Shown: piece after piece, positions 5,870 to 26,834 of the stretch
Layout: each line of letters begins with the position of its first letter
How positions within the stretch are numbered: the stretch's first letter is position 1
Origin: Cyanidioschyzon merolae
Taxonomy: Eukaryota
DNA length: 64,000 nucleotides
Reading direction: 5' to 3' (one strand)
NCBI GenBank assembly: GCA_000091205.1
Contig: AP006494.2
Program-made: the position numbers and the translations under genes
Notes under the pieces: generated by a model
What the model was told of the DNA's origin: nothing
Databases searched by the model: none
Seen by the model: the letters and a program-made list of their open reading frames with translations, nothing else

Positions 5870-5880
5870 CACCTTGACAC

Positions 5881-8316
5881 TACAGTAGTGGCGAGAAGCC
5901 CGCCCTAGACAAGGCGCCGCCAACTAACGTGCAGACGCCTCGCAGTTTTTTTGGACCGGCCATCGACTACTGCTTCCACCTTTTTCTCATATGGTTCGAC
6001 TTTAAGTGATTGTCCAACAAAGTTCCCTCTTGTCAGCTCTGGAGGTCTCGTCTCCAGCACCGCACATTTCCTTATATTGATCGCGGCGATAAAGTCTCGA
6101 TTCAAAAACTCCATACGTTTCTTGCCATCAATGGTTGTGCTAACCAATACGAGTAGCCCTCGAACTTTCGCCATCCTTTCCATTTCCTCTTCCGTCAGCG
6201 GTCCGTGCTTTGCTATATCTTCAGGGCTCCTCTAGCGCCTTTCCATCTCGACCCTTTGAAGTGTACACCCCAGTTCATGGTGTGTAAACGTCGTTCGGAA
6301 CTCATCTACAGGTATCGTAACAAAACGCCTTGTGCACTCCTTGTGCACCCTCGTCGTTGGAGCTGGTGTACACCCTTTTTGTGTCTTCCAGCGCCCTGCT
6401 CCGTACGCTACTACGAGCCTTTGAATTTCATTCTCCTGCAAGGCGCTCAACTGATTGCGAAAATTCGCGAACGCGCGCTGCCTCCCACCGTATAGATTCA
6501 TTCGCAGACGAGCCCACCGGGGCTTGGTATACTCCTCCCACAGCGCATCCCGATGCGCAATGCGAAATTCCATGAACTCCCGAAAAGCTTCAAAGTCCGC
6601 TCCGCGGCTCGTCACCTCGCTCAAAGCTTCCAGGTGCTCTTTCACTCCTGCGTTCCACGTCTCGATTTTCTTCCTCGCATTCCTTATACCGGATTCTCGA
6701 TCGTATCACGCTCTCGAGAATCTCAACAGACGCATGTCTTTCTGACGCAAGTTACCGTCAGCGCCATCTTCCGCACGCTTGGGAGCAGCGATGGCTATGA
6801 TATTCGTATTCCCAGGGTCCGCGCCAACGACAAAGTCGTTATCCTGGACTTTCTGCGTCTCAATACCCGCCTCCTTCTTTTCTTCATGCTTCGTCGCGTC
6901 AACCGTAAAGTCGTTATCCTGTACTTCCTGCGTCGCAGCACCAGCCTCCTCCTTTTCTTCATCCTTCGTGACGGGTGCAGCCGGGGACGGAACTGGACGA
7001 TCTGTCTTCAAGCGCCGATAGTGTACACATATATATGGATACTCCATCGGTTTCGATCACACCAGTGAATACCTTTTGTTTGCTGACTTTGAGACGTTTG
7101 AAATTGAAGATGTTCTTCCAATACGTCTCCCGGTTTTCGCCGGTAAACTCCTCCCTGCTAACATTGAACTCTGGACTGATCTCCCTCATGATGCCACGAA
7201 GGATTCTGGAATCGATAGTCACGAAATGTGACGTGATGTTGCACATTGGAACCACGCTGATGCGCTTACCAATTAGGACAGCCTTCCGTCTCTCCCACTC
7301 TCCATTTGTCTCTTCACTCAGCATCACCTCTGCCTTGCACTCGAGTTCTCGGTCCAGAAACACAAAATAGCGCAGGATGAGGCGATAGTATCTTTCCTGA
7401 TCTTTTTCAGCTCTGATATCTTGTCTGTTGGATTCGCCAGCCCCAGTACAGCACGATGTTCTTGTATCACCGCACGGATTACAGAGGCTTCATTCGTGCT
7501 CCTGCGCGACTTCTTCTTGTCGACGGATTCGATCTCATGTTCACGCTTGCGATGCTTCGTGATGCCATTGATAATCGACCATATCCCCTTGCGAGAGATG
7601 CCAGGGTACAGCGCAGACACGGCGCGTATCATGAATCGTTCGAGATTCATTATCGAATGGTTCCTCAGGTTCGTGAGGTACTTCATCGCCCCATAGTCTT
7701 AAATACCCCAGTCACCCTTGATTCGAATACCCTCGAAGCTGTAAAAGGGATGTTTTTCGTGGAGGGCATCTACTAGCTCATTTTTCCTCCGCGCTTCCTC
7801 TGTACCAAGCATCAGGCGACTAAGAAACGTCTTGTCGCAAAACTCGTCTGGAATCTCGACCGTTTCCATGTGCGTCACGTCTTCGTACATCTCCCTCACC
7901 AAATGCATCAGTCCTAGCGACGCATTGACAATACTCTTCGAGTACGAGTCGACACGTGTTTCGATAGCGTCTCGCAACTTTTCCTTGTAGGGATCCTTGA
8001 TATGTCCAAGAAGAAAGGTTTGCACAACCATCTCGTCGGACAGTTGTCTTTCCCGCAGCCTTCGACGTAGGGCCTCCCCCTTTCGGTCCTTCTTCTCTTC
8101 CTTTTCTTCTGGACTCGGCACTGTTTTTTGTTTTTTTCTGGCAGCCGGCGACCCTGGGCCTCCAGGATCGTCAACTTGCATTTTCATGACTTTCCTTTTT
8201 TGTTTTTTGAAAAAGGACGCCCTTTGAACGCTTCTGTTATATACTGCTAATAATCAATTGAATATTTTTACTTGAGGTTTGAAACAAAATGAACTGAAAA
8301 ACTGTACTTGTCTATA
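5881..8316 (-). mobile_element. TnpB/Fanzor-like (OMEGA-type RuvC nuclease) element, copy 1
   Basis: ~2.4 kb unit, >95% identical to copy 3. It encodes the RuvC-I-like DFVVGADPGNTNIIAIAA motif (ORF 6706..7047) and the RuvC-III RDFIAAINIRKC motif (ORF 5905..6183). Boundaries were set by where copies 1, 2 and 3 stop aligning; the 3' end is ...gggcgggcttctcgccactact(g/a)ta. Confidence 0.7.
5905..8187 (-). pseudogene. Fanzor/TnpB-like nuclease reading frame (interrupted)
   Basis: Collinear ORF pieces: 7699..8187 (N-terminus, basic NLS-like KKQKTVPSPEEKEEKK), 7324..7686, 6959..7363, 6706..7047, 6232..6645 and 5905..6183. Copy 1 has its own TAA at 7696-7698, plus the lesions shared with the other copies. 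Confidence 0.6.
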
Positions 8317-10391
8317 AAGTTAAAGAAAATACAACTTTTACATTAGATCTACATGCTAGAGATCAGGATCACGTTCCCCTTCAACGGCGACATGTGCGTC
8401 GTGTCTCATGCCTGCCTGATCTCCCAGGCGTGCTCACCGAGCGCGATGCAAACTAGTCGCAAACTATTTATCAAAGAACAACTATCTTAAAGCCCCACAC
8501 ATTACGTCCGCCTAAGAGGTCTAGTTTTTCCGGAGAAGCTCTGAAAGTGGGTCAACGCGGGGTGTTCGAGCGACGGCGAAGGAAGCCCACGCCAGGGACC
8601 TTTACCGCAACGAACGGAGGGGCAGAGGCAGTAGCAGCAGAGAATGATGACGAGAGTTCTGAGTAGTCATCCGCCCCTCCGGAAACAACGCTGCAGGTTC
8701 GGGCGCAATTCCTGGATCAATCCTCGGACTCGGGCTCAGTATTACCTCCTACCATGGGTGCCAACCTCAACTTTGGAAACAATCTCGGCGGATGCTTTGG
8801 AAGACGGCTGGCAGTATGTTCACTGCCGAAGCTGGAACAAACGACTTGCCCGCCCATGTGTTTTGGGAGCGGATACGTAGCCGCTGAAAGGGTGGTTCAC
8901 AGAGTATCCCCAGTGGTTGAAGGTTGCTCCACGCGTTCGGCAGCGTAACGGTTGCATTCGAATCGACCTTGACTAGAGTACTTCTGATTCTACGCTAGCG
9001 CTGCGCCAAGCACTCAGTGAACGACTGGAATGCACGAGGCGCTTGTGGCATGTGCACTCACACACCCCGTGGAGGGTGCATCTAAATCGACGACGTATCT
9101 CTCGAGTACCGCAGCACTATTCCCATTCCCGTACGCGCTACGACTCGATAGGTTTCGCATCATGGAATATTTGCGGGATAGCCTCGGAATTGAACTACGA
9201 GATATCGAATTACCAGTACAGTAAAGAGGAACTGATACAAATCGAGGACTCTGCAATAGGAAAAGAGACCCAGCGGGATACGGAGAAGGAGACACAAAGG
9301 CCTCATGATCCACCTAGATGCAAAATAACCAGAGAAAGCAGCTCAGGAAAGAGCCCGAAGAAGACGAAGAAGACCAACAAGAAGAAACAGAAGAATAGAA
9401 AGAAGAGCTCCCGAACGAGCCCATCATGAGTGATCCCCTGAAAGAGCACCCCAGCGGGAACTCAAGAAAGCTGCCGCCAAACTCAATCACCTACTCACAG
9501 CGCTGAAGATCCGAAAAGCCATGCATGCAAGCCTTTAGACCAATTGGCACGCGAGTATGTATATGGGAATCAGAAGATTGCCAGAGAACTGGGACTGCTT
9601 GCACCAGAACGCAACAGTTGCAAACCTCGGTACCTGAAACGACGTACCAAAACTCGGAATGATGAATGCCACCGACTCTATAAGATCGTCAACCGCACCG
9701 CCATACGTGCCAACGCTGGAGACAAGGAAGCGAAAGCAGCGCTACCGGCGCTACAGGCGCAACATGAGGAAGCTATCAAAAGAAAGAAGAAACGTTCCAG
9801 AGAAGACAAACGAGAGGATCGAAACCGCAAAATCGCCTCCCTGACGGAATCTATGCTAGAGAGCACCAACGAAGATGAGACCTGACGCTCCATTCGATCG
9901 AGACTGGACGCACCAGAAAAGTGCTTGGGGCTCACACCAATCGTTCATAAGGAATCGCTGAGGACGGAGAGTGCCTCAGTGAATGAGACCGGGATAGACC
10001 ACGGGACAGAGCTGCATGAAGAAGCAACTGGGCACTGCCAAGACCCAGTCCATTGGTACCAATATGCTGCAGAACTACCGCGCCTCGAACATTACCAGCA
10101 CATGAATCGTTCCAGTGCAAACTACAGATATGATGCGAAAAATATCAATCGTGAAATGAGACAGTGTCGAGCGTCAGCGCACGCAGCACTGCCGCATAGA
10201 CCCACAGCGTCTAGCGACGAGCATCGCCCCAGTCTATCGCACGCGCCGCCGCGAAGATCCGGCACCGCAGGCCGCCGACGTGGGCGTGTCTGCGGCATCG
10301 GCTAGCTTCCAAGCGCCTTCAGCAAGCGCGGCCTCTGCTCCTGTTGCCGCTGCCGCTCGTGGTAAACGTACGTTACCGCACTTTGTGGGGC

Positions 10392-12002
10392 ATGTCGCTC
10401 GTTTTTGATGAGTATGGTAGACCGTTTATTATTTTCAAGGATCAAGACAGAAAGGTCCGGACGAAGGGCTTAGAGGCGATTCGGGCGAACGTTGCCGCAG
10501 CGACGGCCGTATCGCGCACCCTGCGAAGCTCGCTGGGTCCGAACGGCATGGATAAGCTGCTGGTTTCCGCCGACGGTGACGTTACCGTTACAAACGACGG
10601 TGCAACAATTCTGAAAGAAATGAACGTGAGCAATGAAGTTGCGAAACTTATGGTTGATCTGGCAAGCGCACAAGACGATGAGATCGGTGACGGCACCACT
10701 GGCGTCGTCGTGCTAGCAGGGGCCCTGCTCGAGCAAGCGCAACAGCTCCTGGACCGAGGCATGCACCCGTCAAGAATAAGTGACGGCTTCGATCGTGCGT
10801 GCGCGATTGCTGTGGATCATCTGGAAAAGATCGCCCAAGTTATGGAGCACACCAAGGCGGACACGTCACAACTGGTGCGGGCGGCAGTAACTGCGCTCAA
10901 CTCCAAGGTCGTCAAGCGTCATAGTGAGGCACTGGCACACGTGTGTGTGAAAGCGGTGCTTGCAGTTGCGGATCTCGAGCGACGTGACGTGAACTTGGAC
11001 TTGATCAAAATCGAAGGCAAAGTGGGCGGGCGCCTCGAGGACACGATTTTTGTCGACGGCATTGTCATCGACAAGGACATGTCGCACCCGCAGATGCCCA
11101 AACAAATAACCGATGCCAAAATCTGCATCCTGACGACTCCCTTTGAACCTCCCAAGCCGAAGACGAAGCACCGCCTCGAGATAAGCAGCGTCGAGCAGTA
11201 TCGCGAGCTGCAGCATGCTGAACAAGAATACTTCACGAACATGGTTAAACGAGTCAAAGACAGCGGTGCAAACCTGGTTATATGTCAGTGGGGTTTCGAC
11301 GATGAAGCCAATTCGCTCTTGTACCAGAATGGTATCTGTGCAGTTCGCTGGGTCGGCGGTGTCGAGATCGAGCTCATCGCGATGGCCACAGGCGGCCGCA
11401 TCATTCCGCGCTTCGAGGAGATCACTCCTGAGAAGCTCGGCCACGCTGCATCCGTCCGTGAGTTACATTTCGGGACGACACATGACAAGGTCATTGTCAT
11501 CGAAGGGTGCCGTAGCACCCGCGCAGTCACCATTTTGGTGCGCGGTGGCAATAAAATGGTGCTCGAGGAGACCAAGCGCAGCCTGCATGATGCGCTCTGC
11601 GTTGTACGCAACCTCATTCGGGATCAGCGGGTTGTGTGCGGCGGTGGTGCGTCTGAGATTGCTGGCGCTATCGCCGTAGCCGAGGCGGCGGATTGTTGCC
11701 TCGGACCCGAGCAGTACGCGATGCGAGCCTTTGCCGAGGCACTGGACTCGATCCCTATTGCCCTCGCTGAGAACAGCGGTCTGTCGCCCATTGAGACTCT
11801 GTCGAGTGTTCGCGCCCGTCAAATCGCTGAGCGCAAACCGTATTACGGCATCGATTGTCTCGGAATCGGCACGATGGATATGCGTGAGCAGAACGTTTAC
11901 GAAACACTGGAGAGCAAGAAGCAACAATTCCAGCTTGCGACGCAGCTATGTAAGATGATTTTGAAAATTGACGATATGCTCCAGCCGAATTCGTTGAGCT
12001 AA
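10392..12002 (+). CDS. CCT5: T-complex protein 1 subunit epsilon (chaperonin CCT5)
   Basis: Collinear with human CCT5 over its full length: [72 protein letters not shown] and ILKIDD. ATG at 10392; stop is TAA. Confidence 0.92.
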
Positions 12003-12228
12003 AGAAATCAATTCCCTCGTCTCTGCGCTCACTGTACATGCGATTTGGCTCATACGCTGAGACCGCTGCACAAAACCCCAAGATCGCTAGCATCCGCGCT
12101 CCCTTGGCCATGCAACGCTTTCGAGCGCTGCAGCGGTGTTGCCAGGTCACGAAGGTCACGTAACGCTTCTGACCGCGTTTTCGTTATGCGCAACCGATCG
12201 TACCTGTTATCTCACCAGATTCGGCAAC

Positions 12229-13632
12229 TTAGTCTTGCTCTGGTGTATCTTCAAGTAGACGTCGAACCTCTTCGGCGAGCATGTCAGCATCTTGGCCGGG
12301 AGGCAGTGTCATGGACTCGGTACCTGCCACGTCGAGAAGATCTTCCACATTAACGTACTGCGAGAGGTCGAAGTCTTCCTCGGGAGCACCCGCTCCTGGA
12401 TGCATGCTTTCTGTTGCCGCCTCTGTATCCATGCCTGGATTGGGCTCGTTCTCATCATCGAGTAAAAGGATGGAGGGGCCTTTCGGACGCGAGTCGGCAA
12501 TGTCCGTCGGCATCGCTGGCGGTCCATCAGGTTGAAGCTGCCGATTGACTGCGGTGTTGCTCGACTCATCCCAAGCCGGTGCTTCGCCGCTCGGCAGGCC
12601 GGTGTCACGCTCCGCGTCGCTTGAGGTGGAGACCACTGCAACCGTCGGGTTCGCGGTGTTCCTCAGGGCCATATTGGCCATCTGGAGCTGCGCCATGAGG
12701 TTGCGAATGAGCTCAATCGATTCGGGGTGAGCGTTCCGTAGCACCAGCGACTGGGACGTGGGCGTCAGCGATTGCGGTTGCTGGCCCTGCAGCGGCGGCG
12801 AGGACGGCGGGTACGACTCCACCACGCTGTCGGTCATGAGCTCCCCGGTATCCCCCTTATACTCAATGCTGCCTATTGAGCGACCCGCTGTGCCTGCCAC
12901 CGGCTCGGTGGGCACGTTCATCAACCGCTTGCGTTTCCGTTCATCCAATTTGATCCCGTGTTGTTGCAGCAGCAACTGGAACGACTGGTAAATGAATTGC
13001 TTCATCTGTTCGACGCTGCTCTCTAGCTGTTGAATGCGTTGCTCACTGTATCGGAGTTTGCGCTCGAGTTCTATTTGGCGATGCCGCGAAGCCAGCAGCT
13101 CCTGCAGAAGCAGCTTCTTGTCGCGGCGGAGCAGCTCTACGTCCGGAGCACTGACGGAGCTATCCGGCCCGAACCCGTAGTTGCCGATCTCAAGTGCTGC
13201 GGTGTGTGGCGGGCTCGACTCTTTCCGCACCAGCGTTCTTGATGGTCGTCGACGCGTCACTTTGGAGAGCCACTCTGGATGATCTCGCACAAAGTACCGG
13301 TTCCCAAACACAAAGTGATCGCTGTCCAGCTTGCGAAAGCCGTATTGGTTCAGTTGTCGAGCGAAACTGGTAAAGTTACTGTGCTTGAAGTAACGCGGCA
13401 GAACCGTCCGGGCGAACTCACTGGGTAAATGAACTTGAAACGAAAGTCCATCGTCCCTCCAGGAGATGAGGTCGTCGGTAGCCGGATCATCGACCATAGC
13501 CCGCAACTTGGTGACAAACGGAGGCATCAGCGCTTTCTCCCACGCCGCCTCGATGGAGGACAACTCACTCGAATCTCGAGGAGGTCGGGAGGCAGCCTCT
13601 CCATGTACACTGTTGGTTACACTCTCTGTCAT
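12229..13632 (-). CDS. Heat shock transcription factor (HSF-type DNA-binding domain plus coiled-coil HR-A/B)
   Basis: The HSF DNA-binding domain is present: FVTKLRAMVDDPATDDLISW, YFKHSNFTSFARQLNQYGFRK. It is followed by a heptad-repeat oligomerisation region (LLRRDKKLLLQELLASRHRQIELERKL). ATG verified at 13630-13632. Confidence 0.85.
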   Translation of the reverse strand: MTESVTNSVHGEAASRPPRDSSELSSIEAAWEKALMPPFVTKLRAMVDDPATDDLISWRDDGLSFQVHLPSEFARTVLPRYFKHSNFTSFARQLNQYGFRKLDSDHFVFGNRYFVRDHPEWLSKVTRRRPSRTLVRKESSPPHTAALEIGNYGFGPDSSVSAPDVELLRRDKKLLLQELLASRHRQIELERKLRYSEQRIQQLESSVEQMKQFIYQSFQLLLQQHGIKLDERKRKRLMNVPTEPVAGTAGRSIGSIEYKGDTGELMTDSVVESYPPSSPPLQGQQPQSLTPTSQSLVLRNAHPESIELIRNLMAQLQMANMALRNTANPTVAVVSTSSDAERDTGLPSGEAPAWDESSNTAVNRQLQPDGPPAMPTDIADSRPKGPSILLLDDENEPNPGMDTEAATESMHPGAGAPEEDFDLSQYVNVEDLLDVAGTESMTLPPGQDADMLAEEVRRLLEDTPEQD

Positions 13633-14048
13633 GGTTTGTGTTCAAGAAAGAAAAGTTTCCCCGGAAACCCAAAACAATCAACGAGTAAGAGGGTATCGAA
13701 TAACGTCAAGATGTTCGCCGCTCGGGAGCTTTCAACTGGATTCTGTTCCGAGCGTGCTGCGTGCAATCCACTGTTTTTTCTCAGGGTAGCGCAAGAGATC
13801 GAAATCACGATGCAAAGTATCTTATGGAGCTGGGATGGGTTGCCTGTAGGATGTATATTCTTTAGTGAAGTGCCCATGGAGGACTGCATTCATCGTTCAG
13901 GTCAGTCATAGCTCAGTACGCATATGGTTGAGGAACACTGAAAGAATGTAGCGTATGCGGTCCGCGTAAAAACTGATATTCCTTAAAGACAGTTTGCGGT
14001 CAGTGGTAGAAAACGAACAGTTCATCATCTTATGGAAAGCAAAAAGCG

Positions 14049-14640
14049 ATGACAGTAGCCACGACGGGCATCCCTGTTTCTCAACAGCTTGTGCGTCTGG
14101 TCATGAAAACACTGAGAGACAGTCGGAAAGACAGAGTCATCGTTCAAGCATGGCCATCTGCCACTGAAATTGCAATGATAGCGTTCCTGGAAGCTCGCGA
14201 TTGGCATAAAGCACAGAAACGTCGGTTTATTTTCTCAGTTGATGGTGCTTGCTTCGGACGAAAAGGTCGGAGCGTATATGGATATTCGCATAGCAGGTAG
14301 CCTATTGAATGTACGATCGAACTCAAAAAGAACGATGACATCATCTGTTCTGGCGGGACGGATTCATCGGCGGCCTCAGTTTCGATCGTAGAGAAGGCTC
14401 ATCGAACAGCACCCATTTCGTCGAACCATTGTCGACGTTTCCCTGGCGTCTGGCGACGTTTTGCTAATGGACAACGCGGTATTTCATCAGTCCCCTTGCG
14501 TTCGCGGTTTTGCCGATGCTTTCGGGGAAGAGAGCTGATTTACATTCGCCCTTATTCCCCGTGGTTAAACCGCATCGAAGGAGCGTTTTCTATCGTAGAA
14601 AGGAATGATCTCTGCATTGGGTGAATCGCTGATGCGTTCA
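14049..14640 (+). pseudogene. Tc1/mariner (IS630-like) DDE transposase remnant
   Basis: Frameshifted pieces carry the DDE_3 catalytic motifs. RRFIFSVDGACF matches the first D (consensus iFsDEs.f). LLMDNAVFHQS matches the second D (consensus DNAp.H). PYSPWLNRIEGAFS matches PYSPDLNPIE..WS. No intact ORF and no clear TIRs were found. Confidence 0.5.
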
Positions 14641-14719
14641 GCACACGGTGACACACCGGGGCACATGTCGTCTCTCTTCCGCAAGTGATTCACCCTGAGG
14701 GAAGCTTCTTACCTGGGGG

Positions 14720-17087
14720 CATGAAGAAGTGTGTTCTATTTCAAAAATAAACAAGCCAATGGAAAGCTATCGACATGCAGGTCGGGGATCCTGGAGGGCC
14801 ATCTTCGCCGGGTTCGGCGAAGAAAACGGAAAACAATACCGATCCCAGGGGAACAAGAGAAGGCGAAGAAGCACAAGCAGGAAGCCAGGCGTCAAAAGCA
14901 ACTAGAAAGACGACAACACCGCGAGATTTGAGTGAAAGCTTGTCTTCTGAGACATACCAAGGATTCGTACAAGCAAAATTCACAAGAGGCTGTCAGAATC
15001 CTTGTCGCGTCGTACTCCAGGAGGGAACATTAGGCTTCTTTAGGACTCATGCATTTGCTGAAGGAGATGTACGACAACGTGCCGCATATGGAAACAGTCG
15101 ATATTCCAGAGGAATTTTTCAACAAGACCTTTATTCGTCACCTGACGCTTGGCACAGGGGAAGCGCCGAGGAGAAATGAACTGGTGCATGCCCTCCATGA
15201 AAATCATTCCGAGTACCGCTTCAACGGTGTTCGATGCAAGGGTGACTAGGGTATGTACACCTACGAAGCGATGAAGTACCTCACGAATCTGAAGAACAGT
15301 ACGACCATGAACCTCCAACGTTTCATGATACGCGCCATCTCTGCGCTGTACCAGGGCCTCTCTCGCAGAGGGATACGGGCCATCATCGACGGCATCACGA
15401 ACGATAGTACGAGTGAACAGGAGACCGAATTCGTCAAAGAGAAGACATCACGCAGGGGAAAGAATGAAGCTTTTGTGATCGGTGCAGCTATTCAAGAGCA
15501 TCGTGAAGTCTTGGGGCTTGTCAACCCAGCAGAAATGGTATCAGATGTGAAAAAAGATGAGGAATGATGCTCTCCCCTCAACCTGTGCTATTTCGTATTC
15601 CTGAACCGAGAACTCGAACGCAAGGCGGAGACGGAGCAAAGTGAAAAAAAAGAAGAGACAGACAGACAGACGGACAGACGGAAGGCTGTGCTGCTGGAGA
15701 AGCGCTTCAACGTCGATCCGTTGTCCAACATCAAGTCATATTTTGTGACAATCGACTCCAAAATCCTTTACGGCATCATGAGGAAGATCAGTCCAGAGTT
15801 CAATGTTAGCAGGGAGGAGTTTACCGGCGAAAACCGGGAGACGTATTGGAAGAACATCTTCAATTTCAAACGTCTCAAAGTCAGCAAACAAAAGGTATTC
15901 ACTGGTGTGATCGAAACCGATGGAGTATCCATATATATGTGTACACTATCGGCGCTTGAAGACAGATCGTCCAGTTCCGTCCCCGGCTGCACCCGTCACG
16001 AAGGATGAAGAAAAGGAGGAGGCTGGTGCTGCGACGCAGGAAGTACAGGATAACGACTTTACGGTTGACGCGACGAAGCATGAAGAAAACAAAGGAGCGG
16101 ATCCTGCGATGCAGAAAGTCCAGGATAACGACTTTGTCGTTGGCGCGGACCCTGGGAATACGAATATCATAGCCATCGCTGCTCCCAAGCGTGCGGAAGA
16201 TGGCGCTGACGGTAACTTGCGTCAGAAAGACATGCGTCTGTTGAGATTCTCGAGAGCGTGATACGATCGAGAATCCGGTATAATGAATGCGAGGAAGAAA
16301 ATCGAGACGTGGAACGCAGGAGTGAAAGAGCACCTGGAAGCTTTGAGCGAGGTGACGAGCCGCGGAGCGGACTTTGAAGCTTTTCGGGAGTTCATGGAAT
16401 TTCGCATTGCGCATCGGGATGCGCTGTGGGAGGAGCATACCAAGCCCCGGTGGGCTCGTCTGCGAATGAATCTATACGGTGGGAGGCAGCGCGCGTTCGC
16501 GAATTTTCGCAATCAGTTGAGCGCCTTGCAGGAGAATGAAATTCAGAGGCTCGTAGTAGCGTACGGAGCAGGGCGCTGGAAGACACAAAAAGGGTGTACA
16601 CCAGCTCCAACGACGAGGGTGCACAAGGAGTGCACAAGGCGTTTTGTTACGATACCTGTAGATGAGTTCCGAACGACGTTTACACACCATGAACTGGGGT
16701 GTACACTTCAAAGGGTCGAGATGGAAAGGCGCTAGAGGAGCCCTGAAGATATAGCAAAGCACGGACCGCAGACGGAAGAGGAAATGGAAAGGATGGCGAA
16801 AGTTCGAGGGCTACTCGCATTGGTTAGCACAACCATTGATGGCAAGAAACGTATGGAGTTTTTGAATCGAGACTTTATCGCCGCGATCAATATAAGGAAA
16901 TGTGCGGTGCTGGAGACGAGACCTCCAGAGCTGACAAGAGGGAACTTTGTTGGACAATCACTTAAAGTCGAACCATATGAGAAAAAGGTGGAAGCAGTAG
17001 TCGATGGCCGGTCCAAAAAAACTGCGAGGCGTCTGCACGTTAGTTGGCGACGCCTTGTATAGGGCGGGCTTCTCGCCACTACTATAC
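14720..17087 (+). mobile_element. TnpB/Fanzor-like element, copy 2 (chimeric: divergent 5' third)
   Basis: From ~15785 to 17087 it is near-identical to copies 1 and 3. From ~14720 to 15785 it is only ~70-75% identical at the protein level (MHLLKEMYDNVPHMETVDIPEEFF vs MHLVREMYEDVTHMETVEIPDEF). A (GACA)n microsatellite sits at 15655-15690, just upstream of the ~15785 junction. The 3' end is ...ttctcgccactactata. Confidence 0.65.
14775..17062 (+). pseudogene. Fanzor/TnpB-like nuclease reading frame (interrupted)
   Basis: ORF pieces 14775..15179, 15049..15249, 15253..15567, 15688..16008, 15920..16261 (GADPGNTNIIAIAA), 16283..16735 and 16784..17062 (RDFIAAINI). Stops are in-frame at 15565-15567, 16259-16261 and 16733-16735. 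Confidence 0.6.
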
Positions 17088-17157
17088 ACCGCTGCCGTCG
17101 TTCGACTTAGAACGGCTTTTGGTATTGGCGGTGGTACAGCGGCCTTGCCTCGTGTTT

Positions 17158-18084
17158 ATGGCAACGAGCGTTTCGGAAAGCGAGTTGCAACTGCTTCCGC
17201 ACTGGCTTTCGTGTATCCATGCGAAGCGGTCAACCTGGACGTGTTCCCAAGACTATGCGCGGTTCGTTCGGCTCTTGCGGGATATCTCCTTGGAGCTCTA
17301 TGTGGCGCGCAACCAGCCCAACGTGCTCGTTCAACTCGCACGTTACGGTTCAGCGTGCACACGGGTTGTGAACGATCTTATCACGGTCTGGAGTGTTCCG
17401 CTTCTACACGAGAGCGTTTCCAGGGCGGTGATTCGGTTTCTAGTGGTTTGTCAGACCGGCAGCGGACCAGAGCAAGTCAAGAGGCGGGCTCTGGCCTGGG
17501 CGCGACACCTGCTGCGACTCGCTGTCTCTCCAGCGATCAACGCAACCTTTATCGATGAGGGCTTAGGTTCAGCTCGAGTTGTGGATGAACTTTGCACTGT
17601 TATCGGGGCCATGGGTTGCCAGGCGCGCATACCAGCTGAACTTGGCGTTCTGATTCCATCGCTCATTCAGGGTGCATGCTGTGCAGACCTTGTTGCTGCT
17701 CTCGTGCCGACGATTGCGGCAATGCTCGAGTCGCAAGCGACCAGTCCCGCATGGCGTCATGCCGTTCGCTGCGCATTCACCTGGGAAGATGCGGAAACGA
17801 AGTACTGTGCTTTTCGCGACGGGTTGTCGGCGACTCTGCAAAATATGCTCCTCGCGGCAGACGCGCAGCTCTTGTGCCAGTGCCTCCAGTCCCCGGAGGC
17901 ACTACTCAAAACACCGCTGGATCATCTCAGCGAGCGATTCGATCACATTCGCCTCTTCTTGCGTTTACAACATGGAGCGGATCCGGATACCAAGGCATCT
18001 GCTGACGACGTCAATACAGTCTCGACGCAGAACCAGAGCGGACCGGATCTCGCAACGACGCCTCGAGCAGGAACGATGACCTGA
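17158..18084 (+). CDS. Hypothetical protein (no recognised domain)
   Basis: Long ORF with GC-rich codon usage. The first ATG lies downstream of the element end. The ORF track's 5' extension (17044-17157) runs through the element's 3' terminus and is not host sequence. Confidence 0.3.
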   Translation: MATSVSESELQLLPHWLSCIHAKRSTWTCSQDYARFVRLLRDISLELYVARNQPNVLVQLARYGSACTRVVNDLITVWSVPLLHESVSRAVIRFLVVCQTGSGPEQVKRRALAWARHLLRLAVSPAINATFIDEGLGSARVVDELCTVIGAMGCQARIPAELGVLIPSLIQGACCADLVAALVPTIAAMLESQATSPAWRHAVRCAFTWEDAETKYCAFRDGLSATLQNMLLAADAQLLCQCLQSPEALLKTPLDHLSERFDHIRLFLRLQHGADPDTKASADDVNTVSTQNQSGPDLATTPRAGTMT

Positions 18085-18594
18085 GGCGTATTCGCATTTT
18101 GGTGCTGGTGATGCGGTGCAGCAACGTGATCCATCGGTTGCACGAAGGAGCACTCGCTGGTATTTTCGACGAAATGCGACGAATTTGCGGTCAGCGCGCA
18201 GGCATCTCGGGTCGAGCACCCAGTCTGATGTGCGAGCGATCGCAGCCTCCGAGCCATTCCTGCACTGAACCAGATCCAATTTACATTTTGCAAATCTCCG
18301 AGGGATTCGAACGGCCTTGGCGGGCGGGCCCGGAATGCTTCATCGTGGGACTGCGGCAGAGTGCAGGTGTTCCACACGCCGGACTGTTCACGTCGCCCAT
18401 GGATGCCCGCCAGGAGGCATGGGCGAGCAGCTCGTCTCTAACTGCTGGCGCTCCTGCATGCGGACGCTATACGCACCCACACATACAGAGGGAAAGAGAG
18501 AGACTGCCACCGGTTTCGTTTCGTATGAAGCTACGCCCATTCATGAAACTGATAGGCGCGCGAACGGGTTCGAATACGTGGCGCGCGGGATGCG

Positions 18595-19026
18595 TCATTC
18601 TACTGGATTCGCGATATACGGTTTCATCAGTTTCATGAAGTGGATATCGAATAGCTTGCATCGAATAGGCATGTCCTGTACATAAAAAGGGTTTTTTAAC
18701 GCATAGTCGGCGTAGAGGAGATGAAGTCGCCGCAAAATTCCCAGTAAGATTTCATCCGTGACTTCCGGGGTTGCAATCGCCACGAACTGTATACCCGTTA
18801 GCGGCTGATAAAGCCGCAGACGAAACGTTTTCGCTTCTAACGATGTTAGTCCAATATCGTCTAAAATATCAACTGGTGAAACCTGTCGTGAGATCTGCTG
18901 AACGCTGTGCAGTGTCGAGGCCAGTCGAAGGCACTCGTTCAAAGGATGCACCTGTGAGCCTTGAAACTGGGCGCTGTAGATTAAGCCTCCGGACCTGTTT
19001 ATGATAAACACGGTGTAAATCGGCAT
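18595..19026 (-). CDS. TRAPPC1: TRAPP complex subunit 1 (Bet5/sybindin-like longin fold)
   Basis: 143 aa. MPIYTVFIINRSGGLIY ... FRLRLYQPLTGIQFVAIATPE ... LYADYALKNPFY fits the Bet5/TRAPPC1 family in both length and motif order. ATG verified. Confidence 0.75.
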   Translation of the reverse strand: MPIYTVFIINRSGGLIYSAQFQGSQVHPLNECLRLASTLHSVQQISRQVSPVDILDDIGLTSLEAKTFRLRLYQPLTGIQFVAIATPEVTDEILLGILRRLHLLYADYALKNPFYVQDMPIRCKLFDIHFMKLMKPYIANPVE

Positions 19027-20362
19027 ATCAGTATCCAGTCGGCACAGTGACTGTGCCTCTTCACCAGTGACGGGCTCTTGACGAAAACCGAAGCACCAGG
19101 TACAGTGCTCGACCGCGCCGCTGCAGCACGCAGCGGGCCAACACTGTCAGAGAGTTTCGACGTTGACGTTCGCGCCGAGGCTCGCCAGCGCGCATGATGC
19201 ACGCTCGTCATCTGTTCATTCGTGTTTTGTATGTTTATTCATGAACATATGAAGGCAGTATCTGGTCCAGACGCGCATGGCCTACCCATGTCCGATCGAG
19301 GTCGCGAAACCTTGTTCAATGAATGAGATCGAGTGGACGAAGCCTTTAAAGCCCCAGATGCGTCGATGCTGACAGCTAGCTGGGCAGAGGCCGTCGTTCA
19401 CCTACAGATGCTTCTCCGCTCGATAAGCGAGCGATCAGTCCTCCCGTCAGACTCAGAAAATAGAGGCAGCCACTGTTGGGGTACAACGCGAACCGTGAGC
19501 TCCGTTCCGCAACGCTGGATGCACTGCCGCCGCTGACGCCATGCGGCAGGAGAACGGCTCTTCGTTGCGTTTAGAGGCGGCGCCTGAAGAGTTCGCGGTA
19601 TCTGCGTAGCGCACCGATCAAGCAGGGATCCCTTGCGTAGATCCACAGAATACAGATGTTTGATGGTGTCGGAACGGTGGATCTTAGCCAGTGCCGCCCG
19701 GAGATGTGAAGAAGGTACCTGCTCGGAGAGCGCTTCCACGATGTACTGCAGTCAGATGGATGCCTGGAATGCAAGGTTCGGAAAAATGATCGGTTTTATG
19801 AACGCAACAAAGACTCGCCAATATGAAAAATGCAATTGACTACGAATTTTCCGGTGATTTCGTGAACGCGTCCGTGTGGAATACATCCTATTCATGCTCG
19901 AGTTTGGGATGCAAACAGCAGCGGTTGGTGCATATCCAGAACGTCCACCAAGGGAATCCATCTGATCTTCCTCACTTACAGGATATACATACGGCCAGCG
20001 ATGAGGTCCATCGGATTCATACGTCTGGCTGCTTTCATCTATGCGGTGTAGACACGCTGGACAATGAAGCTTCTACTCCAAGGTGTCGCTTATGAGCCCT
20101 AGAGCCACTGCAACGAAGCTGCTCTTGTCCGGACTTGCAACCCAGCGCAACCCAATGGTCAGCGTCCACTAGAATCCGACACAGCAGCCCGTTACCCGCA
20201 GACATCAGAATGGAAGCGTCTCGCTGCAGGACGATGGGCATGCGCCGCAGTCTTGCCAATGAGCCGGATCAATCGCCGCATCCGTAGAACAAAGAACAGA
20301 GACCAACTACCAACTAGCAACGAGATAACGATTTCTTTCGCCATCTACGATAAACGTTAAAA

Positions 20363-20850
20363 TGAGGAAAAGTTTCCTCGTTGGCGAAAGTTTACCTTAC
20401 AGGCGGAAGGTCCCGCGAGCTGAACGAGTGTGCCCGGCGAGTGCTTCATGCGACTCTACAGAGGCAGATGCCAAAGTAAGATATGAGCAGCAGCTCATCG
20501 TAACGCAATGCTTTCTGGGAATAGGAGCAGGACGCTGCGTCTGGGCGTCGCCCTTGTCGCAGCGGACTCCTCGTATATCGCTTCGCAGTGCCGCAGACAG
20601 TACGTCTGTCTGCGCAGCTCGCAGGCTCCCAGAATGATCATGAATCCAGACCCGGTATCGGGTGAAGCATTCCTCGAGCCGAGGCCCTCAGTGGTATAGC
20701 AAAGCCGTTCGAGCTCCATGAACTATCTGCTCCAGCGGTTCAAGCGCAAAGGTGGATGATTAGGGTAGGTACGAGGCACACACGATAGGACGTATGAAAC
20801 GACCAAAATATCCGAGAAGAAGTATAGGTAATGTAAATTGGAGGTAGGTG
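20363..20850 (+). repeat. Dispersed ~470-bp repeat family R2, copy A
   Basis: Shares the core (t)taccttacaggcggaaggtcccgcgagc and the 3' portion ...cctcgagccgaggccctcagtggtatagc...gataggacgtatgaaacgacc with the copies at 26085-26552 (-), 28140-28386 and 32288-32715. Confidence 0.6.
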
Positions 20851-21071
20851 CTTCATCACGGACGCTTTCCAGAAAGCCGTTATCCTTTCCGAATTCTAGG
20901 ATCCATGGTCAATGGAAACGTCTTGTCAATAAAAAAATCGCGCTCAATGGGCGCACCCCGGAGATCGGGCAGTCAACTGACGCGATGCGCGTGCCGTTGT
21001 TGAAGGGAAACTCAATTGGGATCAGTAACGTGTTGTTCAGCTGTGAACGTCGGATATCGGTCCAGGCCATA

Positions 21072-23497
21072 GCAAAGTACAGTCTTTCAGTTCGTTTTTG
21101 TTTCAAACTTCAAACAAGTCCAGTCAAGTGTTTTTTTGCAGTATATAACAGCAGGGTTCAAAGAGCGTTCTTGTTCAAAAAAAAAGAAAGCTATCAAAAT
21201 GCAAGTCCACGATGCTGGAGGCTCAGTGTCGCCGGCTGCTAGAAGAAAACAAAAAACAGTGCCGAGTCCAGAAGAAAATGAAGAGAAGGAGGACTGAAAG
21301 GGGAGGCTCTACGTCGAAGGCGGCAAGAAAGACAACTGTACGACGAGATGGTGGTGAAAGCTGGTCTTCCTAAACATATCAAGAATCCGTACAGGGAAAA
21401 GTTGCGAGACGCTATCGAAACACGTGTCGACTCGTACTCGAAGAGTATTGTCAATGCGTCGCTAGGACTGATGCATTTGGTGAGGGAGATGTACGAAGAC
21501 GTGACGCACATGGAAACGGTCGAGATTCCAGACGAGTTTTTCGACAAGACGTTTCTTAGTCGCCTGATGCTTGGTACAGAGGAAGCGCGGAGGGAAAATG
21601 AGCTAGTAGATGCCCTCCACGAAAAACATCCCTTTTACAGCTTCGAGGGTATTCGAATCAAGGGTGACTGGGGTATTTACAGCTATGGGGCGATGAAGTA
21701 CCTCACGAACCTGAGGAACCATTCGATAATGAATCTCGAACGATTCATGATACGCGCCGTGTCTGCGCTGTACCCTGGCATCTCTCGCAAGGGGATATGG
21801 TCGATTATCAATGGCATCACGAAGCATCGCAAGCGTGAACATGAGATCGAATCCGTCGACAAGAAGAAGTCGCGCAGGAGCACGAATGAAGCCTCTGTAA
21901 TCCGTGCGGTTATACAAGAACATCGTGCTGTACTGGGGCTGGCGAATCCAACAGACATGATATCAGAGCTGAAAAAGATCAGGAAAGATACTATCGCCTC
22001 ATCCTGCGCTATTTTGTGTTTCTGGACCGAGAACTCGAGTGCAAGGCAGAGGTGATGCTGAGTGAAGAGACAAATGGAGAGTGGGAGAGACGGAAGGCTG
22101 TCCTAATTGGTAAGCGCATCAGCGTGGTTCCAATGTGCAACATCACGTCACATTTCGTGACTATCGATTCCAGAATCCTTCGTGGCATCATGAGGGAGAT
22201 CAGTCCAGAGTTCAATGTTAGCAGGGAGGAGTTTACCGGCGAAAATCGGGAGACGTATTGGAAGAACATCTTCAATTTCAAACGTCTCAAAGTCAGCAAA
22301 CAAAAGGTATTCACTGGTGTGATCGAAACCGATGGAGTATCCATATATATGTGTACACTATCGGCGCTTGAAGACAGATCGTCCAGTTCCGTCCCCGGCT
22401 GCACCCGTCACGAAGGATGAAGAAAAGGAGGAGGCTGGTGCTGCGACGCAGGAAGTACAGGATAACGACTTTACGGTTGACGCGACGAAGCATGAAGAAA
22501 AGAAGGAGGCGGGTATTGAGACGCAGAAAGTCCAGGATAACGACTTTGTCGTTGGCGCGGACCCTGGGAATACGAATATCATAGCCATCGCTGCTCCCAA
22601 GCGTGCGGAAGATGGCGCTGACGGTAACTTGCGTCAGAAAGACATGCGTCTGTTGAGATTCTCGAGAGCGTGATACGATCGAGAATCCGGTATAATGAGT
22701 GCGAGGAAGAAAATCGAGACGTGGAACGCAGGAGTGAAAGAGCACCTGGAAGCTTTGAGCGAGGTGACGAGCCGCGGAGCGGACTTTGAAGCTTTTCGAA
22801 AATTCATGAAAGTTCGCATTGCGCATTGGGATGCGCTGTGGGAGGAGTATACCAAGCCCCGGTGGGCTCGTCTGCGAATGAACCTATACGGTGGGAGGCA
22901 GCGCGCGTTCGCGAATTTTCGCAATCAGTTGAGCGCCTTGCAGGAGAATGAAATTCAGAGGCTCGTAGTAGCGTACGGAGCAGGGCGCTGGAAGACACAA
23001 AAAGGGTGTATACCAGCTCCAACGACGAGGGTGCACAAGGAGTGCACAAGGCGTTTTGTTACGATACCTGTAGATGAGTTCCGAACGACGTTTACACACC
23101 ATGAACTGGGGTGTACACTTCAAAGGGTCGAGATGGAAAGGCGCTAGAGGAGCCCTGAAGATATAGCAAAGTACAGACCGCTGACGGAAGAGGAAATGGA
23201 AAGGATGGCGAAAGTTCGAGGGCTACTCGTATTGGTTAGCACAAGCATTGATGGCAAGAAACGTATGGAGTTTTTGAATCGAGACTTTATCGCCGCGATC
23301 AATATAAGGAAATGTGCGGTGCTGGAGACGAGACCTCCAGAGCTGACAAGAGGGAACTTTGTTGGACAATCACTTAAAGTCGAACCATATGAGAAAAAGG
23401 TGGAAGCAGTAGTCGATGGCCGGTCCAAAAAACTGCGAGGCGTTTGGACAACAGATGGAGACGTTTCGCCTGGGGCGCGTTCGCCGCCTCTACTGTA
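21072..23497 (+). mobile_element. TnpB/Fanzor-like element, copy 3
   Basis: The 5' end aligns with copy 1 from ...at|agcaaagtacag, and includes a TATA-like gcagtatataacag at 21141-21154. Up to 23449 it is near-identical to copies 1 and 2. The last ~45 bp is a divergent (~65% identity) but homologous version of the 3' terminus, ending ...cgccgcctctactgta. Confidence 0.7.
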
Positions 23498-23507
23498 CCG
23501 CTGGTGA
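21202..23507 (+). pseudogene. Fanzor/TnpB-like nuclease reading frame (interrupted; ~760 codons)
   Basis: Pieces: 21202.. (MQVHDAGG..., then a copy-specific 1-nt deletion and TGA), 21348..22055, 22016..22420, 22332..22673 (RuvC-I-like DFVVGADPGNTNIIAIAA at 22542-22595), 22695..23147 (Cys/His-rich RLVVAYGAGRW...GC...C...HHELGC), and 23196..23507 (RuvC-III RDFIAAINI at 23280-23306). Confidence 0.65.
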
Positions 23508-23710
23508 CACCAACGTTTTTCTTTTGAAAGACGTTCGTTGTCAGCGGTGTGCTCGCTGCGCTTTCGCAGCCGATTTTGTGACCCGAACGGCTTTATCGCC
23601 ACTGGGGTGCGGCACCGTGCCCGGTAGCGCTTGTGGGCACTGTTCGAAGCTGTCCGGTGTGTCCAGTGCGGCTTTTATTCTATGAGAATACGCGTACGCA
23701 TAGGAGAGTG

Positions 23711-25546
23711 ATGGAAGGAGACCTGCACGCTGCTTCCCAGGAGGTATCTGTGACCGGGGCTAGACCTCCAACGTCGAGGCGCCAGCGCGCGCCTACAGCC
23801 TCTGAGCCCGGGTCCACGCCGCCGGAGCACCACACGGCGAGTCAGTCGAATGTGCGGGCGTATCGTGAGACACTCACGCCCTTGCCTTTGGGGCAACTCA
23901 ACAGTAGTAGCTTCCAACCGGGGTCTGGTATGGGCGCAGCCAAGCACGCTGCGAGTGCAGCAGGGTTTTCCGCTCCGAACGTCGGGCGCTCGCCGCATGG
24001 CGTCGGGACCGTGAACGGCACCATAGACCGCGGGCTCTACGCGGGAGCAACGCCGACGCTCAACATGTACGGAGGGGGTTATGTCGGCAGTGGCGGCATG
24101 CTGCTAAGTCCGACGCTGCTTGTAGCGGCGGCTGCGGCCGCGGCACGCTCCACGAGTTCAAGTCCACACCGTTCGATGGTGGACAGCTCGAGCCCCACGT
24201 TGATTCTTGCAGCGAACCATAAGAATAACATGAACAGGATCTCAACCGGGATATCCCCGCACACAAACGCGTACCACTTGGGGGCAAATATACCACCGCA
24301 ATCCGGTGATGGATCCGCCGTCGCCGGGAGTGCGCCCGTTCCAGAATCGTCGAACAGTACCCCGTTCTGGATCGATGACACCAACTTTGATGCAAACGGC
24401 TATATATACGCGAGCATGTCGAACCCGTATGGGTACGGCGGTGGCGACTCGGCCACAGTCCCAGGAGCTGGCCCGTATTCGGGCGTTTCGATTTCGCCTC
24501 TGCCCGGTTTCTCCATCGGATCCCCATATCGCTCCTTGGTGCCGGGCACGCCGCACGCGACGATGATGTGGCCGGCACAGCATCCTACGGGAACGTCTGT
24601 CATACAAACAAGTGCCGATCTCGAGAGGGATCCACGGGATACAGGCACCAAACAACGCATGGACCGGGGATTGTTACCACCGTGTCCATCCCCGGATCGG
24701 AAGCTCATATCAGCGTGGAACCGAGCTCAGCGGCGAGAGAAAATGGAACGCGAGCGAGCGCAGAAACGCTCTTTGGAGCAAATGAGAGCCCGCAAGGGTT
24801 CAGCCTCTTCAACCTCGCAGCGTGAGTATGAGCGCGTTTCGGATACGTCCCCGAAGACGGCGTGTGCCTTTCCAAGCGAGCCTTTCGAAGACTCGTCCGG
24901 AGACACCTGTGAGCAGCCTAGTGTACGAATCGCTTCGGAGCACAGTCGTGAAGATCACAGCTCCGCGGCGACCAGTTCAGCGATCCAGAGGCACCAGTCG
25001 AGCTGGGTGCCGAGTCAGCCCTCGATCCGTGCGGACCAAAGCAACAGTCATGAGACTAGCGGCAGGGCACCGAGTACGCGAGAGACACGGGCGCAGCGCA
25101 ATCGAGAAGCAGCAAGGCGCAGTCGGTTGAAAGTGAAGCGTCTCATAGCTGACCTGGAGGAACGAAATGCGGCGTACGCTCACCTCTTACGAGAACGCGA
25201 GAATGAGATCGAGCGATTACGTCGGGAAAACGCCACGTTACAGGAACAAGTGGCGCAGTGCACGGCGATCAGGGATGTGGCAGGAGAGGCATCCGCTGAG
25301 GCGCCTCCATCGATTCCGAAGCACGTTTTGGATCCGCCAGTCATCACAAGAGGTACGTCAAAAGCGACGACCAGGTCAGACGACTCGCCATCACGTTTAG
25401 TGTCGTCGGAGCATGAGCATCTCTCCGCACTAGCATCGGTTGCACGTGATGCACAGGGCGCGCCACCCGGCACCGTCAACCGATCAACATCGAGTGGTGA
25501 CGTTTCGGCATTCGCCCAACTGCAGGAGCCTGCGTCCGTGCTCTGA
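23711..25546 (+). CDS. bZIP transcription factor
   Basis: Near the C-terminus there is a canonical basic region and leucine zipper: RAQRNREAARRSRLKVKRLIADLEERNAAYAHLLRERENEIERLRRENATLQEQV, containing the N-x7-R / AAxxSR signature. The rest is long and low-complexity, rich in Ser, Pro, Gly and Ala. The start is assumed to be the ATG at 23711; the ORF track starts at 23633. Confidence 0.7.
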   Translation: MEGDLHAASQEVSVTGARPPTSRRQRAPTASEPGSTPPEHHTASQSNVRAYRETLTPLPLGQLNSSSFQPGSGMGAAKHAASAAGFSAPNVGRSPHGVGTVNGTIDRGLYAGATPTLNMYGGGYVGSGGMLLSPTLLVAAAAAAARSTSSSPHRSMVDSSSPTLILAANHKNNMNRISTGISPHTNAYHLGANIPPQSGDGSAVAGSAPVPESSNSTPFWIDDTNFDANGYIYASMSNPYGYGGGDSATVPGAGPYSGVSISPLPGFSIGSPYRSLVPGTPHATMMWPAQHPTGTSVIQTSADLERDPRDTGTKQRMDRGLLPPCPSPDRKLISAWNRAQRREKMERERAQKRSLEQMRARKGSASSTSQREYERVSDTSPKTACAFPSEPFEDSSGDTCEQPSVRIASEHSREDHSSAATSSAIQRHQSSWVPSQPSIRADQSNSHETSGRAPSTRETRAQRNREAARRSRLKVKRLIADLEERNAAYAHLLRERENEIERLRRENATLQEQVAQCTAIRDVAGEASAEAPPSIPKHVLDPPVITRGTSKATTRSDDSPSRLVSSEHEHLSALASVARDAQGAPPGTVNRSTSSGDVSAFAQLQEPASVL

Positions 25547-26552: not shown

Positions 26553-26834
26553 TAACATGTATCTTAGGGGGGAAATAAATATTGATATACTTGCCGGTGA
26601 GTCGTGAGTCTCGTACCTTTTTTCGATATCGCGCATTCAACACGCGCACCTGGGAGGTCAGGCCGTCGCGAGACACGACACGCATGTCGCCGCTGGGGAG
26701 AAACCCGATCGTGACCAATCGTTTACTGTTTGTTCTACAGTACAAGTTGTGTTTGCGTTGACGTCGTAGCCGAGTATGGTGTTTCAATTCGATTATGTTT
26801 CAACGCTCATGTGAGCGTATCCAAGCGATTTTTC

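Follow-up and report, generated by a model that had tools for sequence, protein, structure and literature searches.

The stretch of DNA analysed here (the window) is 64,000 bp long and comes from the nuclear genome of the red alga Cyanidioschyzon merolae, strain 10D (contig AP006494.2). A comparison of the window with itself (self-BLAST) yields three copies of one repeat, which we abbreviate c1, c2 and c3, and a 5' fragment of it, c4 (Table 1). Our main subject is c2 together with the transposase remnant that lies directly upstream of it. Judged by their sequence, the repeats are Fanzor1 genes of the family CMe-1A, because they match the CMe-1/CMe-1A consensus and because the family profile reaches solved Fanzor1 chains only. 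The copies c1, c2 and c3 are 82-88% identical to the published CMe-1A consensus, and the CMe-1 protein is matched as well. In the PDB the family profile matches Fanzor1 chains of Parasitella (9cf0, E=1.9e-9), Spizellomyces (8gkh, E=3.4e-7) and Guillardia (9cer, E=0.15) and nothing else. Only the profile succeeded: a phmmer search of the PDB sequences with the stitched Fanzor gave no match, nor did Pfam for the Fanzor pieces of the window or for the proteins P0001 and P0002. The precomputed label PF26935/DUF8286 was uninformative.

Fanzor1 has been defined by the motif D-X(125,275)-[TS][TS]-X-X-[C4 zinc finger]-X(5,50)-RD (Bao and Jurka 2013; PMC3627910). The window has GADPG, DEFRTT (TS in intact relatives) and NRDF(I/N)AAINI in this order; the position of the zinc finger reads THHELGC...C, which is not a canonical C4. 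All three copies are pseudogenes. Near 15932 they share a frameshift within a TATATATG run; two stops, TGA (16259-16261) and TAG (16733-16735), are likewise common to them, and c2 carries three additional in-frame stops of its own in the 5' third of the Fanzor gene. An uninterrupted long Fanzor open reading frame (ORF) is found elsewhere (P0001, 752 amino acids (aa); its call begins at V and ends short of the C-terminus of the family).

Directly upstream of c2 lies a frameshifted transposase of the Tc1/mariner type, as the original prediction, made from the letters of the window alone, had stated. The three motifs named there, RRFIFSVDG, LLMDNAVFHQS and PYSPWLNRIEGAFS, can be read in frames 0, 1 and 0 of 14040-14760, and the stitched remnant matches Pfam DDE_3 with E=1.9e-10 (41.2 bits, cut-off 28.6). 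The remnant is longer than that prediction had it, from an ATG at 13810 to a stop at 14649-14651, which is common to other copies, or beyond. The coding sequence probably once reached about 25 codons further, to about 14725; aligned with intact homologues of 292-300 aa, the red-algal consensus ends about 25 codons early. We rejected the idea that the transposase segment is truncated at both its 5' and 3' ends, because the consensus shows that the helix-turn-helix (HTH) region is encoded in the 240 bp upstream of the start given in the original prediction.

Table 1. Features of the transposase-Fanzor1 locus, followed by other copies, relics and genes of the window (LE, position in the standard CMe-1A left end)
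Feature	Position	Strand	Remarks
5' leader of the two-gene element (CTTTCAACTGGATTCTGTT ... TTTTTTCTCAGGGTAGCGCAAGAG)	13729-13809	+	Homologous to about 140-215 of the standard CMe-1A left end; 13-copy alignment of 5' ends
IS630/Tc1/mariner-type DD35E transposase pseudogene	13810-14651	+	HTH region 13810-14048, DDE_3 core 14049-14621; several frameshifts and stops
Spacer from transposase to Fanzor ATG	14727-14774	+	Homology with the final ~50 bp of the left end in standard CMe-1A copies (LE 225-270)
c2 (copy 2)	14727-17097	+	Self-comparison
c2's own, unconverted Fanzor1 5' third	14775-15784	+	Identity 82% to the CMe-1A consensus, 64-82% to c1/c3 (per 100 bp), 98.6% to orthologues in other strains
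(AGAC)n microsatellite, (AGAC)6	15656-15679/82	+	Tandem Repeats Finder; in coding sequence, specific to c2; switch ~90-100 bp downstream
Gene-conversion tract: Fanzor1 3' two thirds and right end	15785-17086	+	Against c1: 8 single-base differences and a 9-difference patch at 16090-16110
Two tandem 75-bp units in the Fanzor coding sequence	15998-16147	+	Self-BLAST; unit number varies in the family, P0001 has more
Last right-end bases still matching the CMe-1A consensus (to consensus position 3145)	17087-17097	+	Consensus match, end alignment
c1 (copy 1 of CMe-1A)	5881-8447	-	Without TE-N2 part; homogenised with c3 from c1 position 7975 onwards
c3 (copy 3 of CMe-1A)	20937-23533	+	Own sequence kept at 20937-21394 and from 23444 on; interior homogenised with c1 and c2
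c4 (5' fragment)	25987-27078		TE-N2, left end and first ~180 bp of the Fanzor ORF
Second, short remnant of this transposase family	29259-29441	-	C-terminal 56 residues, LLLDN...FPWFNPVE; tblastn with consensus E=6.5e-11; no Fanzor piece beside it
CCT5 ORF	10392-12002		Identical to C. merolae 10D BAM80858.1/XP_005536894.1

A search with the raw remnant reached only two other relics, and a majority consensus of 13 copies was required to reach intact homologues. The consensus transposase is 288 aa long and matches Pfam DDE_3 with E=8.8e-17 over positions 4-136 of the 146 in the profile. The consensus is homologous to the window over 13777-14763 at 82% identity (consensus 41-1032), and tblastn of its protein matches the window at 13853-14068 and 14037-14648. 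Matches to HTH domains in its N-terminal part are all below threshold (HTH_Tnp_Tc3_2, E=1.1e-3; HTH_33, E=1.4e-3; HTH_Tnp_IS630, E=0.049); this region does align with the N-termini of intact homologues. The catalytic residues D (VDET/SVDG; SLDET), D (LLLDN/LLMDN; LLDNVAFHHS) and E (NPIE/NRIE; NPIEG) also align with those of intact homologues; 35 residues separate the second D from the E. We found 79 homologues, of which the intact ones have 285-305 aa and are 38-47% identical. The remnant is thus a transposase pseudogene of the IS630/Tc1/mariner (ITm) superfamily type, DD35E.

The transposase gene fills the leader of the Fanzor gene almost exactly. Upstream of the transposase the leader reads TATAG TCTTTCAACTCAATT ... 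TTTTTCGCAGT.TAGCAGGAG and ends 12 bp before the transposase ATG; behind the transposase the sequence resumes at about position 225 of the standard left end (AAGTGCGTTCTTTTTCAAAAA ... Fanzor ATG). With a profile of the left end, nhmmer aligns window 14727-14800 with LE 225-293 (E=8.8e-12). At another locus, L006 (contigs and loci outside the window carry L numbers), it aligns 7708-7736 with LE 145-173 (E=1.2e-3).

One could argue that part or all of an unrelated Tc1/mariner-type element inserted into the leader of an ordinary CMe-1A copy and that the composite was then copied as a unit, with the transposase as a passenger. The transposase segment is indeed flanked by sequences that adjoin each other in standard copies (LE ~215 and ~225), and the extra 140 bp or so of left end found in standard copies are missing from the composites. 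However, no inverted repeats bound 13800-14727, and at the junction only 12 bp separate the leader from the ATG. Furthermore, all four intact homologues of the transposase that we viewed have a CMe-1-like Fanzor1 directly downstream, hence the pairing pre-dates the red-algal copies. We therefore regard a nested insertion as unlikely.

The junction between transposase and Fanzor gene is not restricted to the window. Searches with the remnant and the Fanzor protein (tblastn) show the same pairing at two other, differently flanked loci, those of the weak homologues P0034 and P0035. Window 13786-14763 is 71-72% identical in nucleotides to L006 and L009. Both of these resume at window 16689, therefore they represent the same internal-deletion derivative, which is without window ~14766-16689. 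We then scanned metagenome contigs with an alignment of the three remnants and obtained 29 loci, of which about 11-12 are distinct. The 29 include two orthologues of the window locus, L010 and L011. At 22 of the 27 non-orthologous loci a C-terminal piece of Fanzor (residues ~630-750) lies on the same strand, 80-660 bp behind the transposase; in the other five cases the contig is short or divergence is too high for scoring.

Hence, the junction recurs at ten or more other loci in Cyanidioschyzon-like metagenome contigs, in the form of an internally deleted derivative of about 1.25 kb, which keeps the transposase, only the last 120 or so Fanzor codons and the right end. A full-length Fanzor gene behind the transposase is present only at the window locus and in its orthologues L010/L011. 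This recurrence, together with the fact that the intact homologues are all followed by a CMe-1-like Fanzor1, supports the transposase as a true partner of the Fanzor gene and not a chance neighbour. The proposal that the locus preserves a carrier-type transposase of the Fanzor gene is borne out in this respect. Contigs with the transposase derivative often hold extra Fanzor copies or right-end fragments within a few kb (L006 4722-4928; L021/L023 10846-11455; L029 9-1810; L031 4614-6800), which suggests that elements are clustered there, similar to the window.

What the intact relatives look like can be seen in metagenome and Sequence Read Archive contigs. We viewed the genomic context of four intact transposase homologues (L040/L041, L042, L043/L044 and L045/L046), and in four of four an intact CMe-1-like Fanzor1 comes next on the same strand. 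In L042 the Fanzor1 is an ORF of 702 aa that starts 187 bp after the transposase (BLASTP against P0001, E=2e-133), and in L040 it is an ORF of 619 aa after 34 bp (BLASTP, E=3e-71). The distance is 50 bp in L043 (best tblastn segment against P0001, E=3e-28) and 30 bp in L045/L046, where the ORF has 686 aa (best tblastn segment, L045, E=3e-32). These elements are the closest intact relatives of both genes. Their transposases are 38-43% identical to that of C. merolae (tblastn), their Fanzor1 proteins 27-46% by segment, or 28-35% if one conserved C-terminal segment is set aside, and the two genes are spaced 30-187 bp apart. If the relatives are ranked by similarity to the red-algal genes, transposase and Fanzor1 give roughly the same order. 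In contrast to the C. merolae relic, the relatives are intact and have a lower GC content (37-49%), and some of their contigs carry virus-like genes. Since the pair is present in all four, the unit of transposase followed by Fanzor1 is older than the red-algal copies, and c2 preserves it. The intact relatives show the form that the C. merolae relic had when it was alive.

The intact relatives also tell us about element ends. L046 is a contig of 3.1 kb that holds essentially the whole element, and at its ends are terminal inverted repeats (TIRs) of about 34 nt (TACACTC...AATWATGTTACA). Its inverted-repeat score is 28, compared to a mean of 13.4 and a maximum of 21 in shuffled sequences. This is the sole significant case among the intact relatives: the exact 14-nt repeat of L042 merely equals the shuffle maximum, and the 14-nt, 86% repeat of L040 is within the shuffle range. 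The terminal motif of L046, with TA before it, is nevertheless also present at the ends of L040 and L042. Across the relatives, the inverted repeats of about 14-34 nt contain AATWATGWWACA, with TACACT further out at most ends and TA before it at the ends of L040 and L042 that could be read.

The second peculiarity of c2 is that it is a mosaic. Its nucleotide identity to c1 and c3, calculated per 100 bp, is 64-82% up to about 15780 and 98-100% from there on, except for the patch at 16090-16110. A maximum chi-square analysis places the breakpoint at 15772: c2 differs from c1 in 257 of 972 columns upstream (26%) and in 19 of 1316 columns downstream (1.4%; Fisher p=1.5e-80; 0 of 1000 permutations reach the observed value). 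Divergence along c2 is clearly not uniform. The original prediction had seen both the near-identity of the last 1.3 kb and the divergence of the first kb. Its figure of 70-75% identity at the protein level for the latter does not hold, because 70-80% applies to nucleotides and protein identity is about 62%. It had also placed the switch about 100 bp downstream of a microsatellite, which agrees with our measurement (Table 1). The microsatellite itself is not at the conversion boundary, and another strain has the junction elsewhere.

The other two copies show a related pattern. Between c1 and c3 the first 450 bp or so are 66-89% identical per 100 bp, the last ~90 bp of c3 differ and the flanks are unrelated; the interiors are nearly identical. 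c1 and c3 are old independent insertions.

Contigs nearly identical to the window are present in hot-spring metagenomes. Orthologous copies in other strains reveal that the tract is not the same everywhere. In L010/L047 (97% identical overall) the c1/c3-type sequence begins at or before 15756 and ends as c3-type, not c1-type; the tract includes the patch at 16090-16110 that is missing from c2 of 10D. In L048 the 5' part is 98.6% identical to c2 of the window and 15785-16110 is 99.7% identical to c1, and conversion is limited to about 15785-16110/16365. The following segment of L048, 16366-16821, is 83% identical to every copy in the window and 89.6% identical to the family consensus, and has CAG in place of the TAG stop of the window. 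This segment is the pre-conversion state.

The sharp boundary, the tract edges that differ between strains and the one strain with an unconverted version support the view that the 3' 1.3 kb of c2 were overwritten by gene conversion from neighbouring copies. Recombination or gene conversion had been proposed in the original prediction, but with a currently active subfamily as the donor. The donor cannot be described in this way: c1, c2 and c3 share one frameshift and two stops, all of which lie within the tract, and c1 and c3 are old insertions with diverged ends. From the comparison of strains it follows that the donor was a neighbouring dead copy and that exchange continued after the strains had split. 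c1 is the likely donor or partner. The near-identity of the three copies reflects local homogenisation of dead copies within 18 kb.

Could the mosaic have formed before insertion? A recombinant element, with an old 5' part and a 3' part of the c1/c3 type, might have arisen elsewhere and transposed into the locus as a chimera. Chimeric Fanzor elements with one end in common and the other differing have been described (PMC3627910). However, orthologues of the locus share the 5' part and the flanks, yet their tract edges differ and one has an unconverted 3' segment. The matching sequences are also the two nearest neighbours of c2, and in c1 and c3, too, the interior is homogenised while the ends have diverged. 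We consider such an origin very unlikely.

One could also suspect that the identical 3' parts result from repeat collapse or copy-paste in the reference assembly. Metagenome assemblies are broken, and possibly mis-joined, at the repeat, with contig ends at 15535-17050 and with c2 linked to the c3 flank in L049. But independent contigs from several samples (L010, L011, L047, L048 and L049) reproduce the 5' part of c2 running into c1/c3-type sequence, and the copies are not strictly identical, with 8 single differences and the patch. We consider an assembly artefact very unlikely as well. The contig L049 (ENA ERZ27247235) matches window 9200-17032 and then 21326-27691, so that the 5' part of c2 leads straight into the 3' end of c3 and its downstream flank. 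The gene-bearing region of the window at about 17.1-20.9 kb is skipped, either because unequal crossover of c2 with c3 deleted it or because the contig is an assembly chimera at the repeat.

In our view window 13729-17097 is very likely the decayed relic of a full-length two-gene DNA transposon, the ancestral autonomous form of CMe-1A, whose 3' part was later overwritten by gene conversion. This element would have carried a transposase of the IS630/Tc1/mariner type of about 290-310 aa, with two HTH motifs and a DD35E domain, followed about 50-120 bp further on by Fanzor1 on the same strand, and its right end would lie just past the Fanzor stop codon. Cut-and-paste by the DDE enzyme would have mobilised the element. 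Fanzor1 may, by analogy with TnpB and the characterised Fanzors, have acted as an RNA-guided nuclease that aided the persistence of the element. The usual CMe-1A copies, such as c1 and c3, would have arisen from it by an almost exact loss of the transposase. Another derivative, about 1.25 kb long and consisting of the transposase, the last 120 or so Fanzor codons and the right end, spread to at least ten loci. All copies are dead now. Later, non-allelic gene conversion among the three CMe-1A copies within 18 kb overwrote c2 from 15785 to the right end and brought in c1/c3-type sequence, including the common frameshift and the two stops, and its outcome still varies between strains. This account builds on what was observed, namely the recurring junction, the reconstructed transposase, the gene pair kept in intact relatives and the conversion tracts; the cut-and-paste movement and the role of the nuclease are inferred.

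Several observations weigh against this interpretation. First, neither TIRs nor target-site duplications (TSDs) were found for the C. merolae composite or for CMe-1A; the inverted-repeat scores of the composite consensus and of CMe-1A are within the shuffle background. Inverted-repeat searches of 13400-17600 and of the composite copies gave just short pairs of the size expected by chance. A TGTACAGTA match between one 5' end and the right end of the family is not claimed as a repeat, being missing from other copies. The ends of the C. merolae copies are too diverged to define; their 5' ends have a loose TATAG context, and in the relatives the CACT of the terminal motif has TA in front of it at readable ends. 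The "carrier" role of the transposase is therefore based on the order of the genes and on the intact relatives. Second, the ends are asymmetric, so that for the C. merolae lineage cut-and-paste by the DDE enzyme is a putative mechanism. The right end of the composites (…ATGGTCGTG.AAA..TTTCGCTCCA) is also unlike the standard right end (…GCCGCCACTACTGTA). Third, the composites are without the first 140 bp or so of the standard left end, and therefore which form is derived rests on the comparison with outgroups. Fourth, the Fanzor 3' piece of the deletion derivatives is just ~73% identical to CMe-1A and hence more distant than c2's own Fanzor. Fifth, the intact relatives are on short or virus-like contigs of 37-49% GC. 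Finally, the evidence from strains consists of metagenome contigs, which can be chimeric at repeats, although several independent ones agree that the c2-specific 5' part runs into c1/c3-type sequence.

Because both derivative families are without inverted repeats and have asymmetric ends, it is also conceivable that the C. merolae elements did not move like ordinary Tc1/mariner elements. The right end or a guide RNA may be the essential cis element, with the DDE enzyme secondary or replaced. That the 1.25-kb derivative kept exactly the transposase and the Fanzor right end, the predicted site of the guide RNA, points in the same direction, and spread by Fanzor-guided homing or by repair-mediated copying, for example, would fit. 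The right end looks hairpin-like in alignments; Rfam gives no match over window 5500-24000. We think it improbable that this is how the elements spread, and prefer the decayed two-gene transposon.

Further observations concern the left side of the copies. TE-N2_CMe is a unit of 635 bp at the 5' end of the published CMe-1A consensus and is found in the window at 20285-20928, 25987-26640, 32215-32826 and 28176-28384. It acts as a separate unit: it is missing from c1, inverted against the left end of c3, and in consensus orientation in c4 and in L004/L005. At 32.2 kb it stands alone, and at 28.2 kb there is a fragment of it. An inversion between c1 and c3 as the cause of the inverted TE-N2 at c3 was rejected, since TE-N2 and the adjacent left end would invert together. 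c1 is located at a synteny break between strains (window 8447/8449; L047 7339-8062). To the right of 8449 the sequence is conserved in L047; to the left of the break L047 has a solo TE-N2 and different genes (14-3-3, UAA transporter) in place of c1 and aldehyde dehydrogenase.

A gene of the same orientation begins shortly downstream of each of c1, c2 and c3. The ORFs that follow c1 and c2 (4043-5923 on the minus strand and 17044-18084 on the plus strand) seem to share an N-terminal peptide, MA[AT]PC[LI]GRASRHY, because the mechanical ORF call runs into the common right end of the repeat. Two further and much more diverged Fanzor-like fragments with about 30% protein identity, at 53392-53834 (minus strand, E=1.2e-12) and at 44731-44942 (plus strand, only E=1.8e-4), represent older remnants, either of this family or of a related one. 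A direct repeat of 87 bp (86% identical) at 25859-25945 and 27082-27168 brackets the truncated c4. Another direct repeat, of 387 bp and 97% identity (48916-49302 and 55172-55558), is unrelated to the Fanzor family.

How does the locus compare to what has been published? CMe-1A was described with a consensus of 3169 bp and about 150 copies that are about 80% identical to it, without TIRs, with undetermined TSD, of unknown class and with no transposase listed; some copies have TE-N2_CMe at the 5' side (Bao and Jurka 2013; PMC3627910). The window copies belong to the same family and are likewise old and without TIRs. Unlike the published element, c2 and at least ten deletion derivatives carry a DD35E transposase in the leader. 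What was published as a "3.2-kb element" also acts as two units, given that TE-N2 is missing from c1 and inverted next to c3.

A general link between Fanzor1 and Mariner/Tc1 transposons is already established (PMC3627910; PMC10530073; PMC10711439). The Mariner-type Fanzor1 elements PUl-1 and PUl-2 of Pythium ultimum and PGv-1 of Phaeocystis globosa virus have the same arrangement, a DDE transposase of about 300 aa followed by Fanzor1 on the same strand within about 3-3.6 kb. The Fanzor-linked Mariner transposase of PUl-1 is 28% identical to our consensus transposase over the catalytic core (E=4e-10), although its spacing between the second D and the E is longer. These elements also have TIRs of 24-33 bp and TA duplications, whereas none were detected in the C. 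merolae copies. The arrangement itself is hence already known, and what is new is that the Mariner/Tc1-Fanzor1 association applies to CMe-1A.

The mosaic of c2 resembles other cases of non-allelic (ectopic) gene conversion between dispersed repeats. Divergence drops sharply from about 26% to about 1%, the copies retain their own diverged ends and flanks, the edges of the tract are not the same in all strains and inactivating mutations have been carried over. There is nothing unusual about this. It affects here dead transposon copies just 6-7 kb apart; L049 may record an unequal crossover between c2 and c3.

These findings leave the known picture of Fanzor biology unchanged. They do give CMe-1A, a founding Fanzor1 family that was left unclassified in 2013 for want of a transposase, TIRs and TSD, a partner: a DD35E transposase of the IS630/Tc1/mariner type of about 290 aa. 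The locus also documents cleanly, and with strain resolution, how gene conversion homogenises dead repeats in a genome that is very compact. This affects how copies are dated, since near-identity is here not equal to recent activity. The locus and its relatives point to a conserved two-gene lineage of transposase and Fanzor1 that is still intact in other, virus-like genomes. The intact elements offer candidates for work on how an RNA-guided nuclease and a DDE transposase act together.

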